Program-made: the position numbers and the translations under genes | Assembly (NCBI RefSeq): GCF_041886205.1 | Contig: NZ_CP169029.1 | Length of the DNA stretch: 64,000 nt | Strand: one strand, 5' to 3' | DNA from: Escherichia coli | GTDB lineage: Bacteria; Pseudomonadota; Gammaproteobacteria; Enterobacterales; Enterobacteriaceae | The notes under the pieces: generated by a model | What the model saw: only the letters and a program-made list of their open reading frames with translations | Told to the model about the DNA's origin: nothing | The model's database searches: none | Shown: positions 2,383 to 44,790 of the stretch, piece after piece | How the letters are laid out: each line of letters starts with the position of its first letter | Numbering within the stretch: position 1 is the stretch's first letter

Positions 2383-2395
2383 TAAAAGGTGTGTT

Positions 2396-3747: not shown

Positions 3748-4673
3748 AAATTTCCCCTGAATTATTACAAATTTCCCCGGAAGTGCAGGACGCTTTAAAA
3801 AACAAAAAACCGGTTGTGGCGCTGGAATCGACCATTATTTCTCACGGGATGCCGTTCCCACAAAATGCCCAGACCGCAATTGAAGTAGAAGAAACTATTC
3901 GTAAACAGGGCGCTGTACCTGCCACTATCGCCATTATTGGCGGCGTGATGAAAGTGGGTTTAAGCAAAGAAGAAATTGAATTACTGGGTCGTGAAGGGCA
4001 TAACGTGACCAAAGTTAGTCGTCGCGATTTACCTTTTGTTGTTGCCGCCGGAAAAAATGGCGCAACCACTGTGGCTTCAACGATGATTATTGCGGCGCTT
4101 GCCGGAATTAAAGTATTTGCCACCGGGGGAATTGGTGGTGTGTATCGCGGGGCGGAACATACCTTCGATATTTCTGCCGATTTGCAAGAACTGGCAAATA
4201 CTAATGTCACCGTTGTTTGTGCCGGGGCGAAATCTATTCTCGATTTAGGATTAACCACTGAGTATTTAGAAACCTTCGGTGTGCCGTTAATTGGCTATCA
4301 GACTAAAGCGCTGCCTGCGTTTTTCTGCCGTACCAGCTCGTTTGACGTCAGCATTCGTCTCGACAGCGCCAGTGAAATTGCCCGTGCAATGGCGGTGAAA
4401 TGGCAAAGCGGGCTGAACGGTGGCCTCGTGGTAGCGAACCCGATCCCGGAACAGTTTGCGATGCCGGAGGAATCTATCAATGCAGCCATAGATCAAGCCG
4501 TCGCCGAAGCCGAAGAGCAGGGCGTTATTGGTAAAGAAAGTACACCGTTCCTGCTGGCGCGCGTTGCTGAACTGACCGGCGGTGACAGCCTGAAATCCAA
4601 TATCCAGCTGGTGTTCAACAACGCCATTCTGGCGAGTGAAATTGCCAAAGAATACCAGCGTCTCGCGGGTTAA
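3735..4673 (+). CDS. psuG: Pseudouridine-5'-phosphate glycosidase
   Basis: 312-aa ORF starting MSELKISPELLQISPEVQDALKN; translationally coupled to psuK. Confidence 0.9.
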   Translation: MSELKISPELLQISPEVQDALKNKKPVVALESTIISHGMPFPQNAQTAIEVEETIRKQGAVPATIAIIGGVMKVGLSKEEIELLGREGHNVTKVSRRDLPFVVAAGKNGATTVASTMIIAALAGIKVFATGGIGGVYRGAEHTFDISADLQELANTNVTVVCAGAKSILDLGLTTEYLETFGVPLIGYQTKALPAFFCRTSSFDVSIRLDSASEIARAMAVKWQSGLNGGLVVANPIPEQFAMPEESINAAIDQAVAEAEEQGVIGKESTPFLLARVAELTGGDSLKSNIQLVFNNAILASEIAKEYQRLAG

Positions 4674-6017: not shown

Positions 6018-6027
6018 TGCTCGATTT

Positions 6028-6066
6028 GTAGACCGGATAAAACGTATTAAGCGTTGCATCCGGCAA
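6028..6066. repeat. REP (palindromic unit) element
   Basis: gtagaccggataaaacg…gcgttgcatccggca; matches the ccggat / atccgg inverted core of E. coli REP. Confidence 0.6.
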
Positions 6067-6087
6067 TCGCGCTATTGCAAATAATTT

Positions 6088-6747
6088 TTACTGCATCATC
6101 CCGGAGAATTTATTCTCCGGGTCCATCTCCAGCGCCAGTCCTGACAACTGCTTTCTGTTTTTAATGAGATACCCTTTCTTGCTTTTAGTTAATAAACCGT
6201 CGTGAATGAATTGCGCGAGAACATATAAAAGATGTCGATAAGAAACGCCTAAATACTCTGCCGCTTGCGTATGCTTTTCGTGATAAAGATCACCTTCCTG
6301 CGAGAGTAATATAAAAGCTGCCAGGCGATTAACTAACGGAAATGATTGATTCTGAGTTAAAGAAACAATATTACGATAATTTTTATGACTTAAGGTGACG
6401 CAGAGTTTTCGTAAAAATAGCGTGTCGTTTAATAACAGCGGGCGGTAATGTTTCATAGAGAGCGCAAGGCACCAACACTCTTCAATAGCCTGCACCGCAC
6501 GCGGTTCATGGTCTTTGTCGATTAACTCAATCTCACCAATAAAACAGGGGGCGGCAAAGAAATCGATCAGCGACACGCGACCATTAGCAAGCGTGGCGTA
6601 AAGCCTGGCGCGGCCTCGCGTCAGATAAAACAGCCAGGACGGCTGTTGCCCTTCCTGCACAATGTAGTCACGCGCTAAAAAATGAAACAGCCGCGTATCG
6701 GCTGAAACATCCGTTAAAAAGCAATCCTTAAACGCGGATTCACTCAT
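6088..6747 (-). CDS. yeiL: CRP/FNR-family transcriptional regulator YeiL
   Basis: ORF has a cNMP-binding-like N-domain and C-terminal HTH. Start placed at the internal Met ([10 protein letters not shown]…) to give 219 aa; the ORF track extends to 6786. Confidence 0.8.
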
Positions 6748-6800
6748 CAATTGCTGCTTAAGATCATTATTGTGGATTTCTTTCACGATGTTTATCCGCT

Positions 6801-6814
6801 ATGAGATTTCTCAT
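6801..6814. promoter_or_regulatory. 14-bp palindrome ATGAG-N4-CTCAT upstream of yeiL; candidate CRP/FNR-family (FNR or YeiL) site
   Basis: atgagatttctcat read directly; TGA-N6-TCA core geometry is typical of CRP/FNR-family sites. Confidence 0.4.
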
Positions 6815-6915
6815 ATTTAGCATACGTACGCGGTTGGTAAGATTCAATCATCGGCCCGGTCGAATTTTCTTTGCTGTAGAAAAAATAACGCAACTGGAAA
6901 CAGAGGAAATAAACA

Positions 6916-7857
6916 ATGGAAAAGAGAAAAATTATTCTGGATTGTGATCCGGGTCATGATGATGCTATTGCAATGATGATGGCAGCGAAACATCCGGCAA
7001 TAGATTTATTAGGCATCACTATTGTAGCGGGTAATCAGACGCTTGATAAAACATTAATTAATGGCCTGAATGTTTGCCAGAAACTGGAGATTAATGTTCC
7101 GGTTTATGCGGGGATGCCGCAACCCATTATGCGTAAACAAATCGTTGCCGATAATATTCACGGTGAAACCGGACTGGATGGCCCGGTATTCGAGCCGCTG
7201 ACCTGCCAGGCAGAAAGTACCCACGCGGTGAAATACATCATTGATACCCTGATGGCAAGCGATGGCGATATCACTCTGGTGCCGGTTGGTCCGCTTTCAA
7301 ATATCGCGGTGGCAATGCGTATGCAACCCGCGATCCTGCCCAAAATCCGTGAAATTGTGCTAATGGGCGGCGCTTACGGTACAGGCAACTTCACGCCATC
7401 TGCCGAGTTCAACATCTTTGCTGATCCGGAAGCAGCCCGCGTGGTGTTCACCTCCGGCGTTCCATTAGTGATGATGGGCCTCGATCTCACCAACCAGACC
7501 GTTTGCACCCCGGACGTGATTGCACGGATGGAAAGGGCAGGCGGCCCTGCCGGAGAGCTGTTCAGCGACATCATGAACTTCACTCTCAAAACGCAGTTCG
7601 AAAACTACGGCCTGGCTGGCGGCCCGGTGCACGACGCCACCTGCATCGGTTATCTGATTAACCCTGATGGCATTAAAACCCAGGAGATGTACGTCGAAGT
7701 GGACGTCAACAGTGGCCCTTGCTATGGGCGTACCGTCTGCGACGAGCTGGGCGTTCTTGGCAAGCCCGCTAATACCAAAGTCGGCATCACTATTGATACC
7801 GACTGGTTCTGGGGCTTAGTCGAAGAGTGCGTGCGCGGCTACATCAAAACCCATTAA
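6916..7857 (+). CDS. rihB: Pyrimidine-specific ribonucleoside hydrolase RihB
   Basis: 313-aa ORF with the N-terminal DCDPGHDDA aspartate-cluster motif of IU-nucleoside hydrolases. Confidence 0.9.
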
Positions 7858-7956
7858 GTGTTGATAACAAGCCGGGTCAGTATCGCAAGATCCAAGCCCG
7901 GCTATTTCTGATGGGCAGAAAGCCGTCGCCCAATATGACATGAAGAGATAATAACT

Positions 7957-9207
7957 ATGGATGTCATGAGAAGTGTTCTGGGAATGGTGGTATTGCTGAC
8001 GATTGCGTTTTTGCTGTCAGTAAACAAGAAGAAGATCAGCCTGCGTACCGTTGGCGCGGCGTTAGTGTTACAGGTCGTGATTGGCGGGATTATGCTTTGG
8101 TTACCGCCAGGGCGTTGGGTCGCTGAAAAAGTCGCTTTTGGCGTGCATAAAGTGATGGCGTACAGCGACGCGGGTAGCGCATTTATCTTCGGTTCGCTGG
8201 TCGGGCCGAAAATGGACACGCTGTTTGATGGTGCAGGATTTATCTTTGGTTTCAGGGTATTACCGGCAATTATCTTCGTCACTGCACTGGTGAGTATTCT
8301 CTACTACATCGGTGTGATGGGGATTTTAATTCGCATTCTCGGCGGTATATTCCAGAAAGCATTAAATATCAGCAAGATTGAGTCATTCGTCGCGGTCACC
8401 ACCATTTTCCTCGGGCAAAACGAAATTCCGGCGATCGTCAAACCCTTTATCGATCGTCTGAATCGCAATGAATTATTTACAGCGATTTGTAGTGGCATGG
8501 CCTCGATTGCTGGTTCGACAATGATTGGTTACGCCGCCCTGGGCGTACCTGTGGAATATTTGCTGGCGGCATCGTTAATGGCGATCCCAGGCGGGATCTT
8601 GTTTGCCCGCCTGTTAAGCCCGGCTACGGAATCTTCGCAGGTTTCCTTTAATAACCTCTCTTTCACCGAAACACCGCCAAAAAGCATTATTGAAGCCGCT
8701 GCGACAGGGGCAATGACCGGGCTGAAAATCGCCGCCGGTGTAGCGACAGTTGTTATGGCATTTGTCGCCATCATTGCGTTAATTAATGGTATTATCGGCG
8801 GCGTTGGCGGCTGGTTTGGTTTTGCACATGCCTCGCTGGAGTCCATTTTAGGTTACCTGTTGGCCCCATTGGCGTGGGTGATGGGGGGTGACTGGAGTGA
8901 TGCAAATCTTGCCGGGAGTTTGATTGGGCAGAAGCTGGCGATCAATGAATTTGTCGCTTATCTCAATTTCTCGCCATATCTGCAAACGGGTGGCACTCTG
9001 GATGCTAAAACCGTGGCGATTATTTCTTTCGCGTTGTGCGGTTTCGCTAACTTTGGTTCTATCGGGGTGGTGGTGGGGGCGTTTTCTGCGGTTGCGCCAC
9101 ACCGTGCGCCGGAAATCGCCCAACTTGGTTTACGCGCGCTGGCGGCGGCGACACTTTCTAACCTGATGAGTGCTACTATTGCAGGATTCTTTATTGGTTT
9201 AGCGTAG
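7957..9207 (+). CDS. nupX: NupC-family nucleoside transporter NupX
   Basis: 416-aa ORF, about 85-90% identical to PsuT by eye across the whole length. Confidence 0.9.
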   Translation: MDVMRSVLGMVVLLTIAFLLSVNKKKISLRTVGAALVLQVVIGGIMLWLPPGRWVAEKVAFGVHKVMAYSDAGSAFIFGSLVGPKMDTLFDGAGFIFGFRVLPAIIFVTALVSILYYIGVMGILIRILGGIFQKALNISKIESFVAVTTIFLGQNEIPAIVKPFIDRLNRNELFTAICSGMASIAGSTMIGYAALGVPVEYLLAASLMAIPGGILFARLLSPATESSQVSFNNLSFTETPPKSIIEAAATGAMTGLKIAAGVATVVMAFVAIIALINGIIGGVGGWFGFAHASLESILGYLLAPLAWVMGGDWSDANLAGSLIGQKLAINEFVAYLNFSPYLQTGGTLDAKTVAIISFALCGFANFGSIGVVVGAFSAVAPHRAPEIAQLGLRALAAATLSNLMSATIAGFFIGLA

Positions 9208-9218
9208 TGCGCAATTTA

Positions 9219-9257
9219 TGAGCCGGATAAGATGCGGTCAAGCGTCGAATCCGGCAA
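9219..9257. repeat. REP element
   Basis: tgagccggataagatgcggtcaagcgtcgaatccggcaa. Confidence 0.55.
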
Positions 9258-9262
9258 CATTG

Positions 9263-10351
9263 TTACACCATTGGCACTAATGAAAGCGCGTTATCGGCAG
9301 ACAGGGTAGGGTTGTTTAAGCTGCCGCTGGCGCGCGAAATTGCCGCGCAGGCTACCGCAAAACGGGCGCTGTCGCGGAAACTGTATCCTTCAAGAAAGCT
9401 ATATACCAGGCCCGCCATAAAACCATCGTCAGCACCAAAACTGTCTACTGTCGTATGCGCTGGCGCGGTCAGCAAAAATTGTTCTCCATCCTTTTCGCTG
9501 CAATAAACTGACTCATCGGGCAAATAAACAAACAGTTGCTGAACACCTTGCTGATGCAATGCATTCACTGCGGCATTACGGTCAGCATCGCTGGTGATCG
9601 CCTGTCCCCATAAAATTTCCAGCTCCGGTAAAGTGGGTTTCAGGGTGTGAATATGCGCCAGCCAGTGTTTGATTTTGCCCGCTTTGAATTCTGAAACGGT
9701 ATCGACAAACACCGGGATTTCATCAGCGAGGGTAAAGACCCATTCCAGCGCCTCGGCTGTCAGGTTGCAATCAGCCAGTACCACGCCCGCATGACGAAGT
9801 AAATCGCGCGACCCGTTCAGTAGTTGCGGTGTCAACTGTTCCAGCAGATGGGTATCGTTAATCGCCAGCACGGTTTGATCGTCTCGATTGGCAATTGCCA
9901 GATACGTCGATGTGCTTTGACCATGCAAACGAACGCAGCCGGAGACATTCACGCCGGCACGGCGCGTTTCTTCCAGGAGCATTTCGCCATAAAAGTCATC
10001 GCCAATCACTGAAAGCAAATGGACGTCACGGCCTAACAGCGCCAGATTGTGGGCGATGTTGCGTCCCACGCCGCCCGCCGAGCAATGAATTGTACCGGGA
10101 TGAGAAGCCGCTTGCGGGTAACGGATATCCGCCATCCCGCGAATATCCATATTGATTGTCCCCACCACTACGCAGTATTCCTGCTCGGTGAGAATGTAAC
10201 CTTTGCCTTTAATCCGCCCTTTGCGCATTAAATCCATAATATGCGCCGCAACGCGCGAACGACTGATTTGCAGCATGTCCGCAATTTCGTTCTGCTGAAT
10301 CAGCGGGTTACGCCGTAAAATTGCAAGGATCTCCTTTTCCCGGTTATTCAT
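9263..10351 (-). CDS. yeiI: HTH-fused PfkB-family sugar/nucleoside kinase YeiI
   Basis: 362-aa ORF: N-terminal HTH (ILAILRRNPLIQQNEIADMLQISRSRVAAHI) followed by a ribokinase-like domain homologous to PsuK. Confidence 0.85.
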   Translation of the reverse strand: MNNREKEILAILRRNPLIQQNEIADMLQISRSRVAAHIMDLMRKGRIKGKGYILTEQEYCVVVGTINMDIRGMADIRYPQAASHPGTIHCSAGGVGRNIAHNLALLGRDVHLLSVIGDDFYGEMLLEETRRAGVNVSGCVRLHGQSTSTYLAIANRDDQTVLAINDTHLLEQLTPQLLNGSRDLLRHAGVVLADCNLTAEALEWVFTLADEIPVFVDTVSEFKAGKIKHWLAHIHTLKPTLPELEILWGQAITSDADRNAAVNALHQQGVQQLFVYLPDESVYCSEKDGEQFLLTAPAHTTVDSFGADDGFMAGLVYSFLEGYSFRDSARFAVACAAISRASGSLNNPTLSADNALSLVPMV

Positions 10352-10353
10352 CT

Positions 10354-11211
10354 TCAGGCTACCGCTTTTTCAGTTTGTTGCGCTTTCAGCCAGGCGATCT
10401 CTTCTGCCCAGATATCCGGGTTGATGGTTTCAAGGATCAGCGGAATGCCGTCGAAACGGTCGTCTTGCATGATCCAGCGGAACGCATCATGACCGATATT
10501 GCCTTCACCGAGGCTATGATGGCGGTCAACGCGGCTGCCAAAGGTACTTTTCGCATCGTTAAGGTGCATCCCGCGCAGATACTTAAAGCCGACAATACGG
10601 GCAAAATCAGCGAACGTTTTTTCGCATTCGGCTGGAGTACGCAAATCATACCCGGCAGCGAAAGCATGGCAGGTATCAATGCAGACGCCGACGCGGGATT
10701 TATCTTCCACGCCGTCGATAATCGCTGCGAGATGTTCGAATTTAAACCCTAAGTTACTGCCCTGACCGGCGGTGTTTTCAATCACCGCGGTGACACCTTG
10801 AGTTTTATCCAGCGCAATGTTGATGGATTCGGCAATACGCGCAAGGCAATCCTCTTCTGAAATCTGCATCAGATGGCTGCCAGGGTGGAAGTTGAGCAAA
10901 GAAAGCCCCAGCTGTTCGCAACGCTGCATTTCATCTATAAAGGCATCGCGCGATTTTTCCAGAGCTTCAGCAACCGGATGTCCGAGGTTAATCAGATAAC
11001 TGTCGTGGGGAAGAATTTGCGCCGATGTGTAGTGATATTTTTCACAGGCGGCTTTGAATTCATCGATGGTTTGCGTCGTGAGCGGTGCGGCACGCCACTG
11101 ACGTTGGTTTTTGGTGAACAAGGCAAACGCGGTTGCGTCGATTTCGGCGGCGCGAATTGCGGCATTTGCCAGACCGCCAGCAGCACTAACGTGCGCTCCA
11201 ATGTATTTCAT
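10354..11211 (-). CDS. nfo: Endonuclease IV
   Basis: 285-aa ORF starting [39 protein letters not shown]. Confidence 0.95.
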
Positions 11212-11284
11212 GCGAGGACTCCTGTTAAACCCGCTGGAGGAAAACGGTAATGATAGCGGGTTAACAGGAGCAAGATGTAGTGGT

Positions 11285-12334
11285 TTATGCGATGACGCTT
11301 TGAATCACATAGTTAATCGCACCACCACCAACAATCAGCCAGGCAAACAGTACCAGTGCCATCAGCAGAGGTTTCGCCCCGGCTTTTTTCAGCGCGCTGA
11401 CGTGAGTGGTCAGACCCAGCGCCGCCATCGCCATTGCCAGCAGGAAGGTATCCAGCGTTACCAGCATGTTCACCACGCTCTGCGGTAACAGGTGGAACGA
11501 GTTAAAGATGGCAACGACGATGAACAAGATGGCAAACCACGGAATAGTGATTTTGCTTTTCTCGCCGCTGTTCGCCCCAGACAGCTGTTTAACACGCGCC
11601 GCCAGCAGGATGAGGAACGGAGCCAGCATCATCACGCGCAGCATTTTGGAAATAACTGCTGCGTTTTCCGCATCCGGGCTGATGGCATGACCTGCCGCCA
11701 CCACCTGCGCCACTTCGTGCACAGTAGAACCAATGTAGATACCGAAAGTTTCCGGACTAAACCATTGAGACATCAGCGGATATATCGCCGGGTAGAGGAA
11801 AATCGCGACGGTCCCGAAGATAACAACGGTTGCAACAGCCACGGTTACTTTACTGGCTTCCGCTTTCACTACCGGCTCAGTCGCCAGTACCGCGGCAGCA
11901 CCACAGATACTGCTACCGGCACCGATCAACCAGCTGGTGTGCTTATCCAGACCAAACACTTTCTGCCCCAGGAAGCAAGCCAGCAGGAAGGTACTGGACA
12001 GCGTCAACACGTCAATGATGATCCCACTGATACCGACATCGGCAATTTGCGAGAACGTCAGACGGAAGCCATAAAGAATGATACCCAGACGTAATAAATA
12101 TTGCTTGGCAAACAGCACACCACCGTCACAGCTTTTCCAGATGTGCGGATAGATGGTGTTGCCTAAAACCATCCCCAACAAGATTGCGAGGGTGAGGGCA
12201 CTAAACCCGGCACCCGCAACCGCGGGAATGGAACCACCCCACAGGGCGACCCCGGTGATAACTGCACTCAGGGCTAACCCCGGAATAAAATGCCACAGTG
12301 TACGATGTTGTTTCTGTAAGGTGATATTCGTCAT
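11285..12334 (-). CDS. yeiH: UPF0324 inner membrane protein YeiH
   Basis: 349-aa polytopic membrane ORF, divergent from the LysR regulator yeiE. Confidence 0.85.
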
Positions 12335-12400
12335 AACCCTCTCCTTTATCCGGGCATAAGGTTACGACTAACTGGTTTAAAAATAAAATTGATTATATAT

Positions 12401-12419
12401 TTATAATTAATCTTTATAA
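12401..12419. promoter_or_regulatory. Candidate LysR-type box in the yeiH-yeiE divergent region
   Basis: ttataa-N7-ttataa dyad (T-N11-A type) read directly between the divergent genes. Confidence 0.3.
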
Positions 12420-12432
12420 GTGGTAAGCGACT

Positions 12433-13314
12433 ATGCACATCACCCTCCGGCAGTTGGAAGTTTTTGCAGAAGTATTGAAAAGTGGATCAACCACCCAGGC
12501 GTCGGTGATGCTGGCGTTGTCGCAATCAGCAGTGAGCGCAGCCTTGACCGACCTGGAAGGGCAGCTTGGCGTTCAACTGTTTGATCGCGTGGGGAAAAGA
12601 CTGGTAGTTAATGAACACGGTCGGCTGCTCTATCCGCGTGCGTTGGCACTGCTTGAACAGGCGGTTGAAATCGAACAACTGTTTCGCGAAGACAACGGCG
12701 CGATTCGTATCTATGCCAGTAGTACCATCGGTAACTACATTCTGCCTGCAGTTATTGCCCGTTATCGCCATGATTATCCGCAGTTGCCGATTGAACTTAG
12801 CGTTGGGAACAGCCAGGACGTGATGCAAGCGGTGCTGGATTTCCGCGTTGATATTGGCTTTATTGAAGGACCGTGCCACAGCACTGAAATCATTTCTGAA
12901 CCGTGGCTGGAAGACGAGCTGGTGGTTTTCGCCGCGCCGACTTCGCCGTTGGCCCGTGGTCCGGTCACCTTAGAGCAGCTGGCCGCTGCGCCGTGGATCC
13001 TGCGTGAACGCGGTTCCGGCACGCGGGAGATTGTCGATTATCTATTGCTGTCACATTTACCGAAGTTTGAGATGGCGATGGAATTAGGTAACTCCGAGGC
13101 AATCAAACATGCGGTGCGTCATGGGTTGGGAATTAGTTGCCTGTCGCGACGGGTGATTGAAGATCAATTGCAGGCAGGCACATTAAGTGAAGTTGCGGTC
13201 CCTCTGCCGCGCCTGATGCGTACGTTGTGGCGTATACATCATCGGCAAAAACACCTTTCCAACGCGCTACGGCGCTTTCTGGACTATTGCGATCCCGCGA
13301 ATGTACCGCGTTAA
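12433..13314 (+). CDS. yeiE: LysR-family transcriptional regulator YeiE
   Basis: 293-aa ORF with N-terminal LysR HTH ([36 protein letters not shown]). Confidence 0.9.
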
Positions 13315-13518
13315 GTTGCTGTACAAGAACATGCTGGTGCTGTGTCGATTTCGTGACGCAGCGCCTTCAGCATGCATTCGCCAGAAAAGAGATTGGCTGC
13401 TTTACTTATAATCCCTGGGCGATCATGAAGGTGTCTTATAACCGTGTATTTCTGCCGGAAGGATTGCCAATCGTCTGCTACAATCGCGCCTCATTTTTTA
13501 GATGGATAGCATTTTTGT

Positions 13519-14988
13519 ATGGTTTCCGAAACTAAAACCACAGAAGCGCCGGGCTTACGCCGTGAATTAAAGGCGCGTCACCTGACGATGATTGCCATTG
13601 GCGGTTCCATCGGTACAGGTCTTTTTGTTGCCTCTGGCGCAACGATTTCTCAGGCAGGTCCGGGCGGGGCATTGCTCTCGTATATGTTGATTGGCCTGAT
13701 GGTTTACTTCCTGATGACCAGTCTCGGTGAACTGGCTGCATATATGCCGGTTTCCGGTTCGTTTGCCACTTACGGTCAGAACTATGTTGAAGAAGGCTTT
13801 GGCTTCGCGCTGGGCTGGAACTACTGGTACAACTGGGCGGTGACTATCGCCGTTGACCTGGTTGCAGCTCAGCTGGTCATGAGCTGGTGGTTCCCGGATA
13901 CACCGGGCTGGATCTGGAGTGCGTTGTTCCTCGGCGTTATCTTCCTGCTGAACTACATCTCAGTTCGTGGCTTTGGTGAAGCGGAATACTGGTTCTCACT
14001 GATCAAAGTCACGACAGTTATTGTCTTTATCATCGTTGGCGTGCTGATGATTATCGGTATCTTCAAAGGCGCGCAGCCTGCGGGCTGGAGCAACTGGACA
14101 ATCGGCGAAGCGCCGTTTGCTGGTGGTTTTGCGGCGATGATCGGCGTAGCTATGATTGTCGGCTTCTCTTTCCAGGGAACCGAGCTGATCGGTATTGCTG
14201 CAGGCGAGTCCGAAGATCCGGCGAAAAACATTCCACGCGCGGTACGTCAGGTGTTCTGGCGAATCCTGTTGTTCTATGTGTTCGCGATCCTGATTATCAG
14301 CCTCATTATTCCGTACACCGATCCGAGCCTGCTGCGTAACGATGTTAAAGACATCAGCGTTAGTCCGTTCACCCTGGTGTTCCAGCACGCGGGTCTGCTC
14401 TCTGCGGCGGCGGTGATGAACGCAGTTATTCTGACGGCGGTGCTGTCAGCCGGTAACTCCGGTATGTATGCGTCTACTCGTATGCTGTACACCCTGGCGT
14501 GTGACGGTAAAGCGCCGCGCATTTTCGCTAAACTGTCGCGTGGTGGCGTGCCGCGTAATGCGCTGTATGCGACGACGGTGATTGCCGGTCTGTGCTTCCT
14601 GACCTCCATGTTTGGCAACCAGACGGTATACCTGTGGCTGCTGAATACCTCCGGGATGACGGGTTTTATCGCCTGGCTGGGGATTGCCATTAGCCACTAT
14701 CGCTTCCGTCGCGGTTACGTATTGCAGGGACACGACATTAACGATCTGCCGTACCGTTCAGGTTTCTTCCCATTGGGGCCGATCTTCGCATTCATTCTGT
14801 GTCTGATTATCACTTTGGGCCAGAACTACGAAGCGTTCCTGAAAGATACTATTGACTGGGGCGGCGTAGCGGCAACGTATATTGGTATCCCGCTGTTCCT
14901 GATTATTTGGTTCGGCTACAAGCTGATTAAAGGAACTCACTTCGTACGCTACAGCGAAATGAAGTTCCCGCAGAACGATAAGAAATAA
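13519..14988 (+). CDS. lysP: Lysine-specific permease (APC family)
   Basis: 489-aa ORF starting MVSETKTTEAPGLRRELKARHLTMIAIGGSIGTGLFVASG. Confidence 0.95.
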   Translation: MVSETKTTEAPGLRRELKARHLTMIAIGGSIGTGLFVASGATISQAGPGGALLSYMLIGLMVYFLMTSLGELAAYMPVSGSFATYGQNYVEEGFGFALGWNYWYNWAVTIAVDLVAAQLVMSWWFPDTPGWIWSALFLGVIFLLNYISVRGFGEAEYWFSLIKVTTVIVFIIVGVLMIIGIFKGAQPAGWSNWTIGEAPFAGGFAAMIGVAMIVGFSFQGTELIGIAAGESEDPAKNIPRAVRQVFWRILLFYVFAILIISLIIPYTDPSLLRNDVKDISVSPFTLVFQHAGLLSAAAVMNAVILTAVLSAGNSGMYASTRMLYTLACDGKAPRIFAKLSRGGVPRNALYATTVIAGLCFLTSMFGNQTVYLWLLNTSGMTGFIAWLGIAISHYRFRRGYVLQGHDINDLPYRSGFFPLGPIFAFILCLIITLGQNYEAFLKDTIDWGGVAATYIGIPLFLIIWFGYKLIKGTHFVRYSEMKFPQNDKK

Positions 14989-34432: not shown

Positions 34433-35559
<1,127 letters not shown>

Positions 35560-35653
35560 TTAATTCGTAAAACGTGCTACCGATCACATTAAGAATTCTC
35601 AGCATAGTTGAATTTTAGGGAAGTAACCTCGGGCGATCGCCCAGTTCAGCACA

Positions 35654-36562
35654 CTAATTCTGCTGTAAAAAGTGCAGAAACTGACTTAAAGCATAAGAAG
35701 GCGTTTCGTTATTGCGCCAGAACACACCGACGCTGCCTTTCTGTTCTATCTTTGGCAGGTTGAGGATCACCAGTTGTCCCTGGCTGGCATAACGTTGCGC
35801 CAGGCGTAATGACAAAATAGAGATCATATCGCTGCTTTGTAACAGGTTGGTACTGACGTTCATCGACGCCGACTCAATCGTGTTTTCTGGCAGCATCACG
35901 CCGTGGTCTACCAGCGCATTATCAATGCTGATGCGGATGGGGGTACCTGTCGGCCAGACTATCCACCGCCAGTTAGCAAGATCATTCCAGCTGAGGGTGG
36001 CGTATTTCGCCAGTGGATGCTCAGGACGGGCGACAAAACACACCGGCTCGGTGTAGAGCACGCGATAATTCAGCGGCAGCTGCAACGCGCGACCGCCAAT
36101 TCGCCCAACCACCACATCGACAGAACCTGCCAACAGATCTTGCAGCAATGGGGTCATCACCTTCTCTTCGATATTCAGGTGTAGAGTTGGCATCTCCTTG
36201 AGCAAATGCAAAATCGCCTGGGATACGCAGTCAGTGGCGACGGGAGAACAGCCAATTTTCAGACTGCCGACCAGACCACCTTGTTTAAAACGGGCCAGTT
36301 CATGTTGCGAGCGCTCCATGTCATTGATTAACCGTTGGGCATGTTGCAATAACAATTTGCCGCCTTCAGTAGGACGAAGTCCTTTGCTGTGCCGCTCAAA
36401 AAGTGTGAGTCCGATCTCATCTTCCAGATGTGACAACCATTTCGAAAGCGCGGGTTGGGTGATATTCATCATCCGTGCGACATGGGTCAGATTACCCTGT
36501 TCACCCAGCGCCACCAGCATTTGCAGGTGATGAAGCTTTAGTTTCTGCGCCCAGTTTGCCAT
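35654..36562 (-). CDS. LysR-family regulator of the gentisate cluster (MhbR-like)
   Basis: 302-aa ORF with N-terminal LysR HTH (LHHLQMLVALGEQGNLTHVARMMNITQPALSKWL); divergent from the catabolic operon. Confidence 0.8.
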   Translation of the reverse strand: MANWAQKLKLHHLQMLVALGEQGNLTHVARMMNITQPALSKWLSHLEDEIGLTLFERHSKGLRPTEGGKLLLQHAQRLINDMERSQHELARFKQGGLVGSLKIGCSPVATDCVSQAILHLLKEMPTLHLNIEEKVMTPLLQDLLAGSVDVVVGRIGGRALQLPLNYRVLYTEPVCFVARPEHPLAKYATLSWNDLANWRWIVWPTGTPIRISIDNALVDHGVMLPENTIESASMNVSTNLLQSSDMISILSLRLAQRYASQGQLVILNLPKIEQKGSVGVFWRNNETPSYALSQFLHFLQQN

Positions 36563-36688
36563 TTGCCATAACCTTCAGGTTATCTCTCTGCTCGAAATGC
36601 CATTGTACATTTCATCTCTTTAATCACAATATCGCAACATACACAAAACAAAAGAAACATCTACCTTACCTGCACTGAGGCATTTACT

Positions 36689-38047
36689 ATGACTCAACGA
36701 CGTGATCTACAAGCACTGATCGATGCCGCTCCGGTCGGCAAGATGCAGTGGCGCGTTATCATCTGCTGTTTTCTGGTGGTAATGCTCGATGGTTTTGACA
36801 CCGCGGCTATCGGCTTTATCGCCCCTGATATTCGCACTCACTGGCAACTCACCGCAGGCGATCTCGCCCCGCTTTTTGGCGCGGGTCTGCTGGGGTTAAC
36901 CGCAGGCGCACTGCTTTGTGGCCCGTTGTCCGATCGCTTTGGTCGCAAACGGGTGATTGAGCTGTGTGTCTTTTTGTTTGGCGCGTTAAGCCTTGCCTCG
37001 GCTTTCTCACCGGATCTGCAAACGCTGGTATTCCTGCGTTTCCTAACCGGCCTTGGGCTGGGTGGCGCGATGCCAAACACCATCACCATAACCTCGGAAT
37101 ATCTGCCTGCCCGCCGCCGCGGCGCGCTGGTGACGCTGATGTTTTGCGGCTTTACGCTGGGTTCGGCGTTTGGCGGGATTGTTAGCGCGCAGCTGGTGCC
37201 GGTGATTGGCTGGCACGGCATTCTGGTGTTGGGGGGCGTGTTACCGCTGATGCTGTTTGTCGCACTGCTGGTAGTTCTGCCGGAATCGCCACGCTGGCAG
37301 GTGCGCCGCCAGCTACCGCAGGCGGTGATTGCGAAAACCGTCAGCGCCATCACCCGCGAGCGTTATGTCGATACCCACTTTTATCTCATTGAATCAGCCT
37401 CCGTTACAAAAGGCAGCATTCGTCAACTGTTTATGGGACGTCAGTTACCCATCACGTTGATGCTGTGGGTAGTGTTCTTTATGAGCCTGCTGATTATTTA
37501 CCTGCTCTCAAGCTGGATGCCGACGCTACTGAACCATCGCGGCATCGACCTGCAACACGCGTCCTGGGTCACCGCCGCGTTCCAGATTGGTGGTACGTTA
37601 GGCGCGCTGGCGCTGGGTGTGCTGATGGATAAGTTCAATCCTTTCCGCGTACTGGCACTGAGCTATGCCATAGGCGCTGTATGCATCGTGATGATTGGCT
37701 TAAGCCAGGACGGATTATGGCTGATGGCGCTGGCGATTTTCGGCACCGGCATTGGTATTAGCGGATCGCAGGTGGGGCTGAATGCGCTGACCGCCACACT
37801 TTATCCAACACAAAGTCGCGCCACGGGCGTGAGTTGGTCAAACGCCGTGGGTCGCTGCGGTGCGATTGTTGGCTCGCTTTCTGGCGGCGTGATGATGGCG
37901 ATGAATTTCTCTTTCGACACCCTGTTTTTCATTATCGCTGTGCCCGCGGCGATCAGTGCGGTGATGTTAGCCTTGCTGATTACCGTGGTTCGCCAGTCGA
38001 CCTCTGTCCCTGACTCACTGCCTCGCGCAGGCGTTGTGAACGAATAA
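36689..38047 (+). CDS. MFS aromatic-acid:H+ symporter (3-hydroxybenzoate/gentisate transporter, MhbT-like)
   Basis: 452-aa 12-TM-type ORF with MFS motifs ([11 protein letters not shown]), placed first in the gentisate operon. Confidence 0.8.
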
Positions 38048-38058
38048 GGAGCATCCTA

Positions 38059-39087
38059 ATGACTGATAACAATCAAAATAGCCGCGAACAATTTTATCAG
38101 CACATTTCCGGGCAAAACCTGACCCCGCTGTGGGAGTCACTACACCATCTGGTGCCGAAAACGCCCAACGCTAACTGTGTGCCAGCGTACTGGAATTATC
38201 AGGAGATCCGCCCGCTGCTGCTGGAGAGCGGCAGCCTGATTGGCGCGAAAGAGGCGGTGCGCCGCGTGCTGGTGCTGGAAAACCCGGCGCTGCGCGGGCA
38301 GTCTTCCATCACCGCGACTTTATATGCCGGTTTGCAACTGATCATGCCGGGCGAAGTGGCACCGAGTCATCGCCATAACCAGTCGGCGCTGCGTTTTATT
38401 GTTGAAGGCAAAGGGGCATTTACCGCCGTTGACGGCGAACGCACGCCAATGAATGAGGGCGATTTTATCCTCACTCCGCAGTGGCGCTGGCACGATCACG
38501 GTAACCCTGGCGACGAACCAGTTATCTGGCTCGATGGGCTGGATCTGCCATTAGTGAATACTCTGGGCTGCGGTTTTGCCGAAGATTACCCGGAAGAGCA
38601 ACAACCGGTAACGCGTAAAGAGGGCGATTATCTGCCGCGTTACGCTGCCAATATGTTGCCGCTGCGCCATCAGACCGGGAACTCCTCACCCATCTTTAAC
38701 TACCGTTATGACCGCAGCCGCGAAGTGCTGCACGATTTAACCCGCCTGGGCGATGCCGATGAGTGGGATGGCTACAAAATGCGCTACGTCAACCCGGTCA
38801 CCGGTGGCTATCCGATGCCGTCGATGGGCGCTTTCCTGCAACTGCTGCCGAAAGGGTTCGCCTCCCGCGTGGCGCGTACCACTGACAGCACCATCTATCA
38901 CGTGGTGGAAGGCGGCGGGCAGGTCACCATCGGCAATGAAACCTTCAGCTTTAGTGCAAAAGATATCTTCGTGGTGCCGACCTGGCACGGCGTGTCGTTC
39001 CAGACCACGCAAGATACCGTGTTATTCAGTTTTTCGGACAGACCGGTACAAGAAGCCCTGGGACTGTTCCGCGAAGCGCGTTATTAA
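38059..39087 (+). CDS. Gentisate 1,2-dioxygenase (bicupin)
   Basis: 342-aa ORF with two cupin modules and His-rich metal site ([12 protein letters not shown]…WRWHDHGN). Confidence 0.85.
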
Positions 39088-39102
39088 TTTGGGAGAGAAA
39101 AA

Positions 39103-39804
39103 ATGACTCAATACGTATTCGAACCACAAGCGCCCGTTACCGTACCGGTTGTTGGCAGTGATGAACAATTCCCCGTGCGCCGCGTGTACTGCGTCGGACG
39201 TAACTATGCCGCCCACGCCCGCGAAATGGGCTTTGATCCGGATCGTGAACCGCCATTCTTCTTCTGCAAACCGGCGGATGCCGTTGTTCCGGTTGCCGCT
39301 GGCGAAACGCTGGCGCTGCCGTATCCGGCGCAGACCGATAACTACCATTACGAAATTGAACTGGTGGTGGCGATTGGTAAAAAGGGCAGTGATATCCCGC
39401 TGGAAAACGCCCATGAATATGTCTGGGGTTATGCCACGGGTCTTGATATGACTCGTCGTGACCGTCAAATGGAAATGCGCCAGATGGGCCGCCCGTGGGA
39501 AATCGGCAAAGCGTTTGATCTCTCGGCCCCCATCGCGCCGCTGCACAAAGCCAGCGAAACCGGCGGTATTGATAACGCGCCAATCTGGTTACAGGTTAAC
39601 GGCGAAGATCATCAGCGCAGCGATATTCGCCATCTCATCTGGTCAGTGAATGAAACCATCAGCTACCTGTCCGGCTTTTTTGAACTGCAACCGGGCGATC
39701 TGATCTTCACCGGTACGCCGGAAGGGGTTGGCCCGGTAGTGAAAGGTGATGTGATCACGGGCAACGTCGAGGGCTTAACGCCTATCGCGGTGAAAATTGT
39801 CTGA
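39103..39804 (+). CDS. Fumarylpyruvate hydrolase (FAH family)
   Basis: 233-aa ORF with fumarylacetoacetate-hydrolase fold motifs ([15 protein letters not shown]); sits between the dioxygenase and the isomerase. Confidence 0.8.
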
Positions 39805-39809
39805 GGTGC

Positions 39810-40457
39810 ATGATGAAGCTGTACAGTTTTTTTAATAGTTCAGCATCGTACCGGGTACGCATTGCGCTGGCGCTGAAAGGCATTGATTACCATACCGAAG
39901 GGGTGAATATCCGCATTGGTCAGCAAAATGAACTGGCCTACCGGCGGATGAATCCGGTCGGGCTGGTGCCGACGCTGCTGACTGACGAGGGCGAATCACT
40001 TGGACAATCGCTGGCGATTATTGACTGGCTGGATCGTCACTACCCCCAAGTTCCGCTGATGCCGCAGGAAGAGCCGGCCCGCAACAAGGTGCTGGAAATT
40101 GTCTATGCCATCGCCTGTGATATTCATCCACTGAATAACCTGCGCGTGCTGCGCTACCTGACCGAAGAGCTGAACGTCAGTGAAGAAGATAAAAAACGCT
40201 GGTATGCGCACTGGATCCAGCAAGGGTTAAGCGCGGTGGAACAGCTGTTGCGCCAGAGCCAGTCGGGGCAATTTTGCGTGGGCGAGACGCCGACGCTGGC
40301 AGATTGCTGCCTTGTCCCGCAGTGGGCGAACGCGCTACGCATGAACTGCGATCTGAGTGGGTATCCGCGCTGCAAAGCGGTGTACGACGCCTGCACGCAG
40401 CTGCCAGCGTTCATTGCCGCAGCGCCAGAAAATCAACAAGATAAAATTTCAGCCTGA
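39810..40457 (+). CDS. Maleylpyruvate isomerase (GST zeta-class / maleylacetoacetate isomerase-like)
   Basis: 215-aa ORF with GST N-terminal thioredoxin-like fold (MKLYSFFNSSASYRVRIALALKGIDY). Confidence 0.8.
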   Translation: MMKLYSFFNSSASYRVRIALALKGIDYHTEGVNIRIGQQNELAYRRMNPVGLVPTLLTDEGESLGQSLAIIDWLDRHYPQVPLMPQEEPARNKVLEIVYAIACDIHPLNNLRVLRYLTEELNVSEEDKKRWYAHWIQQGLSAVEQLLRQSQSGQFCVGETPTLADCCLVPQWANALRMNCDLSGYPRCKAVYDACTQLPAFIAAAPENQQDKISA

Positions 40458-40468
40458 CCAGGAGAACC

Positions 40469-41665
40469 ATGATGACTAAAGTGACACGCGCAGTAATTGT
40501 GGGAGGCGGGATCGGCGGTGCGGCAACTGCGCTGTCACTGGCCCGCCAGGGGATCAAAGTGGTGCTGCTGGAAAAGGCGCATGAGATTGGTGAGATTGGC
40601 GCGGGCATCCAGTTGGGGCCAAATGCGTTTTCGGCGTTGGATAGCCTCGGCGTCGGCGAAATCGCCCGCCAGCGCGCGGTATTCACCGATCACATCACCA
40701 TGATGGATGCGGTAAACGCCGAAGAAGTGGTGCGCATTGAAACCGGTCAGGCCTTTCGCGACCATTTCGGCGGCCCTTACGCGGTGATCCACCGGGTTGA
40801 TATTCACGCCTCGGTGTGGGAAGCGGTACTGACGCATCCGGACGTGGAATATCACACCTCCACCAACGTCGTGGATATTCGTGAGACGGAAGACGATGTC
40901 ACCGTGTTTGACGATCGCGGCAATAGCTGGAGCGGCGATATTCTGATTGGCTGTGATGGCGTGAAGTCAGTGGTGCGCCAGAGCTTATTAGGCGATGCGC
41001 CGCGCGTCACCGGACATGTGGTCTACCGCGCAGTTATCGATTGTGCGGATATGCCGGAAGATTTGCGCATTAACGCACCAGTACTGTGGGCGGGGCCGCA
41101 CTGTCACCTGGTGCATTACCCTTTGCGCGGCGGCAAGCAGTATAACCTGGTGGTGACATTCCACAGCCGCCAGCAGGAAGAGTGGGGCGTGAAGGATGGC
41201 AGTAAAGAGGAAGTGCTCTCTTACTTTGAAGGGATTCACCCCCGTCCTCGCCAGATGCTGGATAAACCGACCTCCTGGCGACGCTGGTCAACCGCCGACC
41301 GTGAACCGGTAGCGAAGTGGGGAACGAAGCGCATTACGCTGGTTGGCGATGCGGCCCATCCGGTGGCGCAGTATATGGCGCAGGGTGCCTGTATGGCGTT
41401 GGAAGACGCGGTAACGCTCGGCAAGGCGCTGGCGCAGTGTGAGGGGGATGCGGCGCAAGCCTTTGCACTGTATGAGTCGGTACGTATTCCGCGCACCGCG
41501 CGCATCGTCTGGTCGACCCGTGAAATGGGGCGGGTTTATCACGCCGCAGGAGTAGAGCGCCAGGTACGAAACCTGCTGTGGAAAGGTAAATCGCAGGCAG
41601 AGTTTTACCGCGGCATGGAGTGGCTGTACGGCTGGAAAGAAGATAACTGTCTGCAACCACGCTGA
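40469..41665 (+). CDS. FAD-dependent 3-hydroxybenzoate 6-hydroxylase (salicylate hydroxylase-like monooxygenase)
   Basis: 398-aa ORF with N-terminal GxGxxG motif ([14 protein letters not shown]) and C-terminal FAD-binding motif ([22 protein letters not shown]). Confidence 0.8.
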
Positions 41666-41726
41666 GTACTTTAATCCGCTGACCGGAGGCGCTAACATAG
41701 CGCCTCATTTTTTTGCGGGTGATGAT

Positions 41727-42674
41727 ATGCGTGTGTTACTGGCGCCGATGGAGGGTGTGCTTGACTCTCTGGTGCGTGAATTGCTGACCGAAGTTAACGA
41801 CTACGATCTGTGCATCACCGAGTTTGTCCGCGTGGTGGATCAACTGCTGCCGGTAAAAGTCTTTCATCGCATTTGCCCTGAGCTACAAAACGCCAGCCGG
41901 ACACCATCCGGTACGCGGGTGCGCGTTCAGTTGTTAGGTCAGTTCCCACAATGGCTGGCAGAGAACGCCGCCCGTGCGGTGGAATTAGGTTCCTGGGGCG
42001 TGGATCTCAATTGCGGCTGCCCGTCGAAAACGGTTAACGGCAGCGGCGGCGGGGCGACGTTACTCAAAGATCCTGAACTCATCTACCAGGGTGCAAAAGC
42101 GATGCGTGAAGCTGTACCGGCGCATTTGCCCGTCAGCGTGAAAGTGCGTCTGGGCTGGGACAGCGGTGAGAAGAAATTTGAAATCGCCGATGCGGTTCAA
42201 CAGGCTGGTGCTACGGAGCTGGTGGTGCATGGACGGACAAAAGAGCAGGGTTACCGCGCGGAGCATATTGACTGGCAGGCGATTGGCGAGATTCGCCAGC
42301 GGCTGAATATTCCGGTGATTGCCAACGGTGAAATCTGGGACTGGCAGAGTGCGCAACAATGCATGGCGATCAGCGGCTGCGACGCAGTGATGATTGGTCG
42401 CGGGGCGCTCAATATTCCCAACCTGAGCCGGGTGGTAAAATATAACGAACCGCGAATGCCGTGGCCGGAGGTGGTTGCTTTGCTGCAAAAATATACCCGT
42501 CTGGAAAAGCAGGGCGATACCGGGTTATATCACGTAGCGCGGATTAAACAGTGGTTGAGTTATTTGCGTAAAGAATACGATGAAGCAACAGAATTATTTC
42601 AGCATGTTCGGGTGTTGAATAATCCCCCTGATATTGCAAGGGCTATTCAGGCAATTGATATCGAGAAACTCTAA
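41727..42674 (+). CDS. dusC: tRNA-dihydrouridine(16) synthase
   Basis: 315-aa ORF starting [23 protein letters not shown] with a Dus TIM-barrel and catalytic Cys region (DLNCGCP). Confidence 0.9.
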
Positions 42675-42715
42675 TAAACCATAGTGATGTTTTTTGACAA
42701 TGTGTTAGCTCTTTA

Positions 42716-42960
42716 TCAATAGGCCGCACGGTTGTTTGGTGGCGTCAAAATTGCCGAGGCGTTCCCTGAAGGCCGGGGCAGCCCACATGGATGTGGGCTG
42801 AGGGCGCGTTTTACAGGGATGTTACCTCGCGCCCGACCCGGTAGCCGTAAGGGATAAGCCGAGGGCACCGCGCAGCGGCGATTTTGTTCGCCAGAGCCCG
42901 GGGGTGCAGGGGGCGGCGGCGATTGGCCGCCCCCTGCGCGCTCCTTGCGCCAGTGATTAT
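42716..42960. repeat. GC-rich intergenic block with several perfect stem-loops; unclassified structured element
   Basis: Hairpins gcagggggcggc-ggcgattg-gccgccccctgc (42906-42936), gcccacat-gg-atgtgggc, and gggcgcg…cgcgccc; it lacks the ccggat / atccgg REP core. Confidence 0.3.
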
Positions 42961-43045
42961 ATGAAGCAATGCACATGACAGGAGCGCAACAGGATGAGAG
43001 ACTGAAATATTCTCGTTATTTTCGGACCTGATGACATTAATTAAT

Positions 43046-43353: not shown

Positions 43354-44790
43354 ATGAATCGTGATTCCTTTTATCCCGCCATCGCCTGTTTTCCGCTGTT
43401 ACTGATGCTGGCCGGGTGTGCGCCTATGCATGAAACCCGCCAGGCGTTAAGCCAGCAAACGCCCGCTGCACAAGTTGACACCGCATTACCCACGGCGCTG
43501 AAAAATGGTTGGCCAGACAGCCAATGGTGGCTGGAGTATCACGATAATCAGCTCACTTCATTAATTAACAATGCACTACAGAACGCACCGGATATGCAGG
43601 TGGCTGAACAGCGCATTCAGCTAGCTGAAGCCCAGGCGAAGGCAGTTGCCACTCAGGATGGTCCGCAGATCGACTTTTCGGCGGATATGGAGCGGCAAAA
43701 AATGTCGGCAGAAGGCTTAATGGGGCCGTTTGCTCTGAACGATCCGGCCGCAGGTACGACCGGCCCGTGGTACACCAACGGTACTTTTGGCTTAACGGCG
43801 GGCTGGCATCTCGATATCTGGGGAAAGAATCGGGCGGAGGTTACTGCCCGCCTGGGTACGGTTAAAGCACGGGCGGCGGAACGCGAGCAAACCCGCCAAT
43901 TGCTGGCTGGCAGCGTAGCCCGCCTGTACTGGGAGTGGCAAACCCAGGCGGCGTTAAACACGGTCTTGCAGCAAATAGAAAAAGAGCAGAACACCATTAT
44001 CGCGACCGATCGCCAGCTATATCAGAACGGGATTACTTCTTCAGTTGAAGGTGTGGAAACCGATATTAATGCCAGCAAAACCCGGCAGCAGCTCAACGAT
44101 GTCGCGGGGAAAATGAAAATTATTGAGGCACGGTTAAGCGCACTTACAAATCACCAGACAAAGTCATTGAAGCTTAAACCGGTCGCGTTGCCGAAAGTGG
44201 CAAGCCAGCTTCCTGATGAACTGGGGTACTCCTTACTGGCCCGGCGGGCAGATTTGCAGGCGGCGCACTGGTACGTTGAGTCATCGCTAAGCACCATTGA
44301 TGCGGCAAAAGCGGCATTTTATCCTGACATCAACCTGATGGCCTTCCTGCAACAGGATGCGTTGCACTTAAGCGATCTGTTCCGTCATTCCGCGCAGCAA
44401 ATGGGCGTTACGGCAGGCCTGACGCTACCCATTTTCGATAGTGGTCGTCTTAACGCCAATCTCGATATCGCAAAAGCCGAAAGCAACTTGTCTATCGCCA
44501 GCTACAACAAAGCGGTGGTTGAAGCGGTGAATGACGTGGCGCGGGCAGCCAGTCAGGTTCAGACACTTGCGGAGAAAAACCAGCATCAGGCGCAAATTGA
44601 GCGCGATGCCTTGCGTGTGGTAGGTCTTGCGCAGGCGCGCTTTAACGCGGGCATCATTGCTGGTTCCCGCGTCAGCGAAGCCAGAATCCCCGCGCTGCGT
44701 GAGCGGGCCAATGGCCTGTTATTGCAAGGGCAGTGGCTGGATGCCTCCATTCAACTCACTGGTGTGTTGGGCGGGGGTTACAAACGCTGA
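43354..44790 (+). CDS. mdtQ: Outer membrane efflux lipoprotein, NodT/OMF family (MdtQ/YohG), apparently intact
   Basis: 478 aa from ATG 43354 (MNRDSFYPAIACFPLLLMLAGC lipoprotein signal with lipobox Cys); one uninterrupted reading frame. Confidence 0.8.
   Translation: MNRDSFYPAIACFPLLLMLAGCAPMHETRQALSQQTPAAQVDTALPTALKNGWPDSQWWLEYHDNQLTSLINNALQNAPDMQVAEQRIQLAEAQAKAVATQDGPQIDFSADMERQKMSAEGLMGPFALNDPAAGTTGPWYTNGTFGLTAGWHLDIWGKNRAEVTARLGTVKARAAEREQTRQLLAGSVARLYWEWQTQAALNTVLQQIEKEQNTIIATDRQLYQNGITSSVEGVETDINASKTRQQLNDVAGKMKIIEARLSALTNHQTKSLKLKPVALPKVASQLPDELGYSLLARRADLQAAHWYVESSLSTIDAAKAAFYPDINLMAFLQQDALHLSDLFRHSAQQMGVTAGLTLPIFDSGRLNANLDIAKAESNLSIASYNKAVVEAVNDVARAASQVQTLAEKNQHQAQIERDALRVVGLAQARFNAGIIAGSRVSEARIPALRERANGLLLQGQWLDASIQLTGVLGGGYKR

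Follow-up and report, generated by a model that had tools for sequence, protein, structure and literature searches.

Positions 35654-41665 of the 64,000-nt Escherichia coli sequence studied here (contig NZ_CP169029.1, assembly GCF_041886205.1; the whole stretch is referred to as the window) contain six intact open reading frames (ORFs) between yohJ and dusC, with mhbR on the minus strand and mhbT-mhbD-mhbH-mhbI-mhbM on the plus strand. The region very likely represents the enterobacterial mhbRTDHIM regulon for the catabolism of 3-hydroxybenzoate and gentisate, an ancestral locus that was vertically inherited and deleted in most E. coli strains. Seen against K-12, the block has the look of a strain-specific island; it would instead be the ancestral enterobacterial state, with K-12 holding the derived deletion, and absence from K-12 need not mean acquisition. 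The pathway, its Klebsiella prototype and the structure of the O157:H7 enzyme have all been published and the RefSeq annotation of the locus is correct; the system is already known, as the initial annotation of the region had recognized. The consequence for discovery is small, and the useful outcome is the corrected evolutionary direction. No prior description of the locus as ancestral was found in a literature search.

Gene content and predicted pathway

The genes present, their families and catalytic residues, the synteny, the agreement in divergence between block and flanks, the allele frequencies and the purifying selection were all observed directly in the sequences compared. Gene identities were assigned with NCBIfam profile models, each judged against its own curated cut-off, and population counts refer to 5426 complete E. 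coli genomes. Three of the enzymes scored above equivalog cut-offs and the block was found, at any location, in 611 of these genomes (11.3%), so the cluster is no chance pattern.

The ring-cleaving enzyme MhbD reached 599.9 bits with TIGR02272 (cut-off 442.1) and 790 bits against PDB 2d40, the gentisate 1,2-dioxygenase (GDO) of E. coli O157:H7, from which it differs at 6 of 342 residues. His104, His106 and His145, which we take to be the iron ligands, are present. MhbI scored 308.4 bits with TIGR01262 (cut-off 171), a model that is named for maleylacetoacetate isomerase and spans both maleylpyruvate and maleylacetoacetate isomerase activities. Its translation contains the N-terminal motif SSASYRVRIAL, matching SSxSxRVRIAL, and its best solved relatives in the PDB were 6jwk, at 235 bits, and 2v6k/2jl4, a maleylpyruvate isomerase, at 166 bits. 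Maleylpyruvate would be its substrate, judging from the operon context with a GDO and from the lack of a homogentisate dioxygenase in the block. MhbM obtained 760.4 bits with NF006021, the model for 3-hydroxybenzoate 6-monooxygenase (cut-off 459). It aligned end to end (269 bits) with its best PDB match, 4bjy, the distantly homologous 3-hydroxybenzoate 6-hydroxylase of Rhodococcus jostii RHA1, whose His213, Tyr217 and Gln301 are kept as His212, Tyr216 and Gln300; the GGGIGG FAD motif and Arg169 are also present. The presumed roles of these His, Tyr, Gln and Arg169 residues as part of the substrate site follow the Klebsiella and Rhodococcus literature.

The remaining proteins were less sharply resolved by the models. 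MhbH stayed below all NCBIfam equivalog cut-offs (best PRK10691, 154.5 vs 201 bits), and its best solved relatives were PDB 6j5y (381 bits) and 4maq, described as a 'putative fumarylpyruvate hydrolase' (251 bits). MhbT also fell below the curated cut-offs for PcaK (425.8 vs 770) and for TIGR00895, the aromatic acid/H+ symport family (379.3 vs 418.55); the protein is clearly related to this symporter family. MhbR matched many LysR models, the best of them PcaQ-like at 187 bits, under the model cut-off. A 7.3-kb stretch of the window is matched at 100% identity by E. coli wlxctx60 (NZ_AP045833.1), which comes from the faeces of an Asian black bear in Japan. On the RefSeq record of this strain the genes are named mhbT (3-hydroxybenzoate transporter MhbT), gtdA, maiA and '3-hydroxybenzoate 6-monooxygenase', with a LysR family regulator in the place of mhbR.

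All six genes are under purifying selection: the ratio of nonsynonymous to synonymous divergence (dN/dS) lies between 0.01 and 0.12 for every gene in every comparison, and between 0.03 and 0.08 for mhbR. The genes are therefore being kept functional.

The regulon would allow 3-hydroxybenzoate (and gentisate) to serve as a carbon source under aerobic conditions, with substrate flow and growth on 3-hydroxybenzoate transferred from homologs. MhbT would bring in 3-hydroxybenzoate, which the FAD/NADH monooxygenase MhbM is predicted to hydroxylate para to the existing hydroxyl group, giving gentisate. Ring opening by MhbD, an Fe(II) bicupin dioxygenase, would yield maleylpyruvate, to be isomerized to fumarylpyruvate by the glutathione-dependent, zeta-class glutathione S-transferase (GST) MhbI and then cleaved into fumarate and pyruvate by the FAH-family hydrolase MhbH. 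The divergently encoded LysR-type activator MhbR, probably acting on a palindrome in the mhbR-mhbT spacer, would turn on the packed mhbTDHIM genes when the inducer is present, and their transcript would end at a conserved hairpin just ahead of dusC.

It is highly improbable that the cluster serves another aromatic acid (salicylate, 5-aminosalicylate or homogentisate) or survives in E. coli as a silent, decaying remnant. GDO-family enzymes and group A flavoprotein monooxygenases do include salicylate- and aminosalicylate-specific members, the second-best model on MhbD was 5-aminosalicylate dioxygenase, the name of TIGR01262 points to maleylacetoacetate, and no specific report of E. coli growing on 3-hydroxybenzoate via this cluster was found in the literature search. 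However, the alternative models scored far under their cut-offs, both 5-aminosalicylate dioxygenase on MhbD (240.8 vs 650) and salicylate 1-monooxygenase on MhbM (141.5 vs 446), and MhbD is almost the same protein as an enzyme solved as gentisate 1,2-dioxygenase. Decay is countered by the six intact ORFs and their low dN/dS, as well as by the listing of GtdA in the protein table of a rumen proteome study of O157 (PMC9135228). Moreover, 3-hydroxybenzoate assimilation has been described for E. albertii (PMC9145129), which carries an orthologous block at the same site with 96-99% amino acid identity. A salicylate, homogentisate or 5-aminosalicylate pathway was rejected on the model scores.

According to references given in PMC3572157, Klebsiella and Salmonella use the 3-hydroxybenzoate/gentisate pathway, and Klebsiella DNA enables K-12 to grow on 3-hydroxybenzoate (Robson et al., 1996). 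The X-ray structure 2d40 is credited to Adams et al. (2006) in PMC10306065.

The locus is orthologous to the mhbRTDHIM cluster of Klebsiella and represents a further allele of the gentisate locus known from O157:H7. The cluster described for Klebsiella M5a1 has the identical six-gene order and orientation, with a divergent LysR-type MhbR activator, and proteins of matching length (MhbH 232 vs 233 residues in the window, MhbI 214 in both, MhbM 397 in both; PMC3572157). The cluster of K. michiganensis DSM 25444 was compared in place of the M5a1 sequence. Klebsiella pneumoniae M5a1 is now placed in the oxytoca/michiganensis group. In K. michiganensis, the proteins of the syntenic cluster share 84-91% identity with their counterparts in the window (MhbR 85%, MhbT 87%), and the cluster again has yohJ and dusC as neighbours; at the nucleotide level the block of this different species is about 79% identical. 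E. coli O157:H7 carries the six genes in the same yohJ-dusC locus as a distinct allele, the block being 95.9% identical to the window at the nucleotide level vs 98-99.8% in the flanks. The chemistry downstream of gentisate is shared with the nag genes of Ralstonia sp. U2, whose maleylpyruvate isomerase NagL is a zeta-class GST like MhbI (2v6k) and is accompanied by a NagK-type hydrolase, and with the gtd genes of Cupriavidus necator, whose regulon also includes a LysR regulator, GtdR, and an MFS transporter (PMC11603403). Both are distant homologs with another gene order and other feeder pathways (naphthalene/salicylate in U2). The gene identities, gene order and mhbRTDHIM-type pathway proposed in the initial annotation are thus borne out by the NCBIfam scores, the RefSeq names, the M5a1 description and the Klebsiella synteny alike, with best matches to gentisate and 3-hydroxybenzoate enzymes rather than to salicylate or homogentisate enzymes.

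Ancestry of the locus and the K-12 allele

Outgroup loci were collected by scanning a genome collection with MhbM, and synteny was then determined by tblastn. The order sanA-cdd-yohK-yohJ / mhbR mhbTDHIM / dusC(-mdtQ) was also found in E. albertii and Escherichia E69, in Citrobacter amalonaticus, C. werkmanii and C. braakii, in Klebsiella spallanzanii, K. michiganensis, K. grimontii and Raoultella terrigena, and in Pseudocitrobacter, Pluralibacter, Kluyvera, Pseudenterobacter and Shimwellia. In Salmonella diarizonae the mhb block lies with the dusC side, the only side visible. As to E69, which is deposited as 'E. coli strain E69' (CP089930.1), its flanking core genes are only 89-97% identical to the window (87-92% for E. 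albertii), which points to a divergent Escherichia lineage and not to a typical E. coli.

Divergence of the block follows that of its surroundings. Nucleotide identities to the window for block and left flank, respectively, were 90.6 and 90.0% in E. albertii, 92.0 and 93.3% in E69, 82.0 and 81.2% in C. werkmanii, and 79.2 and 77.1% in K. michiganensis; C. werkmanii and C. braakii differed from each other to the same degree in both segments (91.7 and 91.3%). Synonymous divergence (dS) is likewise congruent between block and flanks across species.

As the initial annotation had suspected, K-12 MG1655 lacks the block, its dusC-yohJ intergenic region being just 238 bp long. K-12 is identical to the window up to 35595, or, with a 2-nt gap, up to 35603, and homology restarts at CTTTAATCCGCTGACC (41669-41684). 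Between these points, a 108-bp filler (4445-4552 of the extracted K-12 locus) stands in place of window positions 35600-41668. The exchange of 6.07 kb for 108 bp means that there is no clean insertion site. Searched by blastn-short with a word size of 7, the filler showed no similarity to the block, to the O157 intergenic insert or to any fetched locus, giving only chance matches of 12-16 nt. It contains a perfect hairpin with an 11-bp stem (AGAGGGATTGC...GCAATCCCTCT).

Marks of mobility were sought at the native site. No direct or inverted terminal repeats were detected at the block borders, where the reported repeat families were short chance matches in coding sequence. A tRNA scan of 30-47 kb and an Rfam scan of 33-45 kb of the window returned no tRNA and no Rfam element, and no transposase or integrase gene lies in the block, in which RefSeq annotates only catabolic genes. 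Taken together, syntenic blocks in the outgroups, divergence equal to that of the flanks and the lack of mobility marks indicate that the K-12 state is a derived deletion. The simplest reading of these sequences is that an ancestral enterobacterial locus was passed on vertically and was then deleted in E. coli.

The opposite direction, in which the lineage of this strain would have gained the block horizontally, as a genomic island that entered between yohJ and dusC, appears very unlikely. It would accommodate the absence of the block from K-12 and about 89% of complete E. coli genomes, a GC content 4-8 points over the window mean, the occurrence of the same 6-kb module on pathogenicity islands rich in insertion sequences (IS) and on conjugative plasmids, and the finding that, within E. 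coli, block alleles diverge more than the flanks. Nevertheless, position and orientation are the same in at least ten other enterobacterial genera, and in each comparison made between species the block is as diverged as its flanks. E. coli alleles are at least 93% identical to one another, vs 92% to E69 and 90.6% to E. albertii. No tRNA, terminal repeat, transposase or integrase marks the site, and the empty site is unclean, consisting of the filler plus a retained hairpin that is found 3' of mhbM in other genera. The acquired-island reading is thus largely refuted. Of the 'accessory metabolic island' of the initial annotation, the first term holds, with the block occurring at the native site in 9.3% and anywhere in 11.3% of E. 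coli genomes, and the notion of an acquired island does not, given the synteny, the flank-congruent divergence and the lack of mobility marks.

Several points weigh against an ancestral, vertically inherited catabolic locus. The block has a GC content of 55-59% and a GC content at third codon positions (GC3) of 0.59-0.66, somewhat above the window mean of 51%, which alone could hint at a foreign origin. Its occurrence in pathogenicity islands and on plasmids demonstrates that the cluster is mobile at other places. The 108-bp filler of K-12 matched none of the sequences with which it was compared. Block alleles of E. coli carriers differ by 3-7%, vs about 0.2-3% in the flanks, the change coming abruptly at the borders, and this pattern would also be expected if homologous recombination through the flanks had brought the block back from diverged lineages. 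As regards function, MhbT and MhbH lack a curated equivalog, their presumed substrates following from context and orthology, and the enzyme activity, expression and growth attributed to the copy in this strain are predictions.

The complete mhb cluster was also found in Serratia marcescens, with 85-92% protein identity to E. coli and without yohJ/dusC flanks, which suggests a lateral transfer out of the Enterobacteriaceae.

Alleles at the native site and copies elsewhere

Comparison of the yohJ-dusC interval across E. coli, as envisaged in the initial annotation, placed the block at the yohJ junction in 504 of the 5426 genomes (9.3%). The K-12-type filler allele was found, at 98-100% identity, in 4918 (~91%), including K-12, REL606 and EcN. 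With 504 occupied sites and one single filler allele in 4918 genomes, the locus is essentially biallelic and traces to one deletion. Among the carriers are O157:H7, E24377A and an O78:H4 avian pathogenic E. coli (APEC) strain, as well as isolates from poultry, goat, panda and bear. The left junction of E24377A is 100% identical to that of the window. The distribution offers a cheap way to test whether aromatic-acid catabolism is linked to host niche.

Intact alleles of carriers differ by 1-7% across the block. The window and O157 are 98-99.8% identical in the flanks and 93-97.8% inside the block, and the mhb locus contains mosaic identity blocks that indicate recombination between alleles. The diversity of dusC is also raised (94-99%). 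All E. coli alleles are nearer to each other than to those of E69 or E. albertii.

One account of these patterns assumes an early single loss in E. coli, after which the carriers regained the block at its old site from diverged Escherichia through recombination in yohJ and dusC. We regard it as rather unlikely. One deletion allele is indeed shared by strains as unlike as K-12, REL606 and EcN, divergence steps up at both borders, and the mosaic blocks point to exchange between alleles. Against this, the E. coli alleles cluster together and are not nested in the sampled E. albertii or E69 alleles, the dusC diversity suggests that the whole neighbourhood may hold old haplotypes, and no donor lineage has been identified.

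A further, tentative idea of low probability is that the mhb locus is an old presence/absence polymorphism in E. coli maintained by niche-dependent selection. One ancient deletion allele, at ~91%, would stand beside intact alleles that are strongly constrained and whose dS (0.05-0.29) tends to exceed that of adjacent core genes (0.01-0.17). If the idea is true, catabolism of plant-derived 3-hydroxybenzoate/gentisate would help E. coli to colonise the guts of herbivores or plant-fed hosts; O157:H7, O145, bovine, goat and bear isolates count among the carriers.

The module also occurs away from yohJ-dusC, and in about 107 genomes it was found solely outside the native site. Copies of the whole mhbRTDHIM cluster, 95-96% identical to window positions 35602-41671, lie in pathogenicity islands of strains 99-3311 (6001-12070 of its extracted locus), O145 RM9873-C1 and LH85-a. 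These copies are far from yohJ-dusC, in IS-rich surroundings adjoining efa1/lifA or nleB/nleE. Homology of the island copies to the window starts at 35602, within ~2 bp of where the K-12 deletion has its left breakpoint (35595-35603); the shared end-point could reflect chance within a permissible interval of ~54 bp, a recombination hot spot or a shared event. On plasmid pCFSAN004178P_02, an IS-flanked copy (8001-13947 of the extracted locus) is ~93.8% identical to the window and lies ~7.5 kb from the heat-stable enterotoxin gene sta1. Twelve further Escherichia plasmids, 11 from E. coli and 1 from Escherichia sp., large and mostly conjugative, carry the module. As part of the same tentative idea of niche-dependent selection, the 6-kb module may have been captured independently into efa1/nleB/nleE islands and heat-stable (ST) enterotoxin plasmids.

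A 9-kb contig from a metagenome-assembled genome (MAG) labelled 'Collinsella sp.' is 95-97% identical to E. coli mhb at the nucleotide level and has both end-points as in the island copies, but lacks mhbH, mhbI and the last part of mhbD through a deletion. Mis-binning of E. coli DNA into an actinobacterial MAG is almost certainly the explanation.

Control region, borders and neighbouring genes

The features of the region are collected in Table 1. Within mhbTDHIM, the intergenic gaps measure 5-15 nt and a Shine-Dalgarno-like sequence lies ahead of each gene, an arrangement that would fit a single mhbTDHIM transcript. Cotranscription, like the operator and promoter assignments for MhbR, follows the model of the homologs.

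Table 1. Features of the mhb region in window coordinates.
Feature	Coordinates	Strand	Basis or remark
Left border of the presence/absence polymorphism, ~50-58 bp past the mhbR stop codon	35596..35604		K-12 alignment
mhbR, LysR-type transcriptional regulator, 302 aa	35654..36562	-	Intact ORF; divergent from operon
Divergent control region, 126 bp	36563..36688		mhbR-mhbT spacer
mhbT, aromatic acid/H+ symporter family MFS transporter, 452 aa; putative 3-hydroxybenzoate uptake	36689..38047	+	RefSeq name, family scores
mhbD / gtdA, gentisate 1,2-dioxygenase, 342 aa	38059..39087	+	TIGR02272, PDB 2d40
mhbH, FAH-family hydrolase, 233 aa; presumed substrate fumarylpyruvate	39103..39804	+	PDB relatives, operon context
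mhbI / maiA, glutathione-dependent zeta-class GST isomerase, 214 aa	39813..40457	+	TIGR01262; alternative ATG 39810
mhbM, FAD-dependent 3-hydroxybenzoate 6-monooxygenase, 397 aa	40472..41665	+	NF006021; alternative ATG 40469
Right border of the presence/absence polymorphism, directly after the mhbM stop codon (41663-41665)	41666..41669		K-12 alignment
Terminator-like hairpin GAGGCGCTAACATAGCGCCTC + T-run, between mhbM and the dusC start codon	41686..41714	+	Terminator scan, conservation

The mhbR-mhbT spacer has the same length of 126 bp in 9 of the 16 aligned enterobacterial taxa. A 16-bp palindrome, ATAACCTTCAGGTTAT (ATAACC-N4-GGTTAT; 36568-36583), is nearly invariant among them and is probably the recognition site of MhbR. 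Two further spacer blocks are invariant, CCATTGTAC (36600-36608) and CGCAACAT (36633-36640). On the minus strand, TACAAT lies inside CCATTGTAC, and the promoter scan pairs it as TTGTGA-16-TACAAT (36629-36602), a promoter-like arrangement for mhbR. Since the scan returned 3 sites vs 4.2 expected by chance, it is no evidence by itself, and only the minus-strand site at CCATTGTAC was retained, as a putative promoter. TTGTAC is a candidate weak -35 element of an activator-dependent mhbT promoter.

At the other end, the hairpin is the sole strong plus-strand terminator-like site that the scan found in the region. It is conserved between mhbM and dusC in 16 of 16 other enterobacterial loci inspected, and K-12 keeps it despite having no co-oriented gene upstream. 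The mhbM-dusC spacer measures 61 bp in the window, vs 143-173 bp in Klebsiella; the short form is shared with E69 and Citrobacter. O157-type alleles (O157 FORC_044, E600003 and R32_14_1F) are longer here: between mhbM and the terminator they have ~100 bp of additional sequence that is GC-rich and repeat-like (…CCCCTCGCCCCTTCGGGAGAGGGTTAGGGTGAGGG…), positions 9666-9824 of the extracted FORC_044 locus corresponding to 41666-41726 of the window. The pathogenicity-island copies run into sequence related to this O157 extra segment.

The left neighbours sanA, cdd, yohK and yohJ are all on the minus strand, with yohJ starting at 35523 (NCBIfam PRK01821 and RefSeq). To the right lie dusC (41727-42674, plus strand; NCBIfam PRK10550 and RefSeq), yohP and mdtQ. 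Around the dusC-yohP spacer (window ~42600-43000), identity is ~56-58% vs O157, E7 and E69, and 98-99.5% vs strains H2 and E600003, which suggests alternative intergenic sequences 3' of dusC, possibly repeat elements. Finally, mdtQ (43354-44790, plus strand) is an intact ORF of 478 aa in the window, annotated by RefSeq as MdtQ, a multidrug resistance outer membrane protein, and is annotated as a pseudogene in K-12 MG1655.

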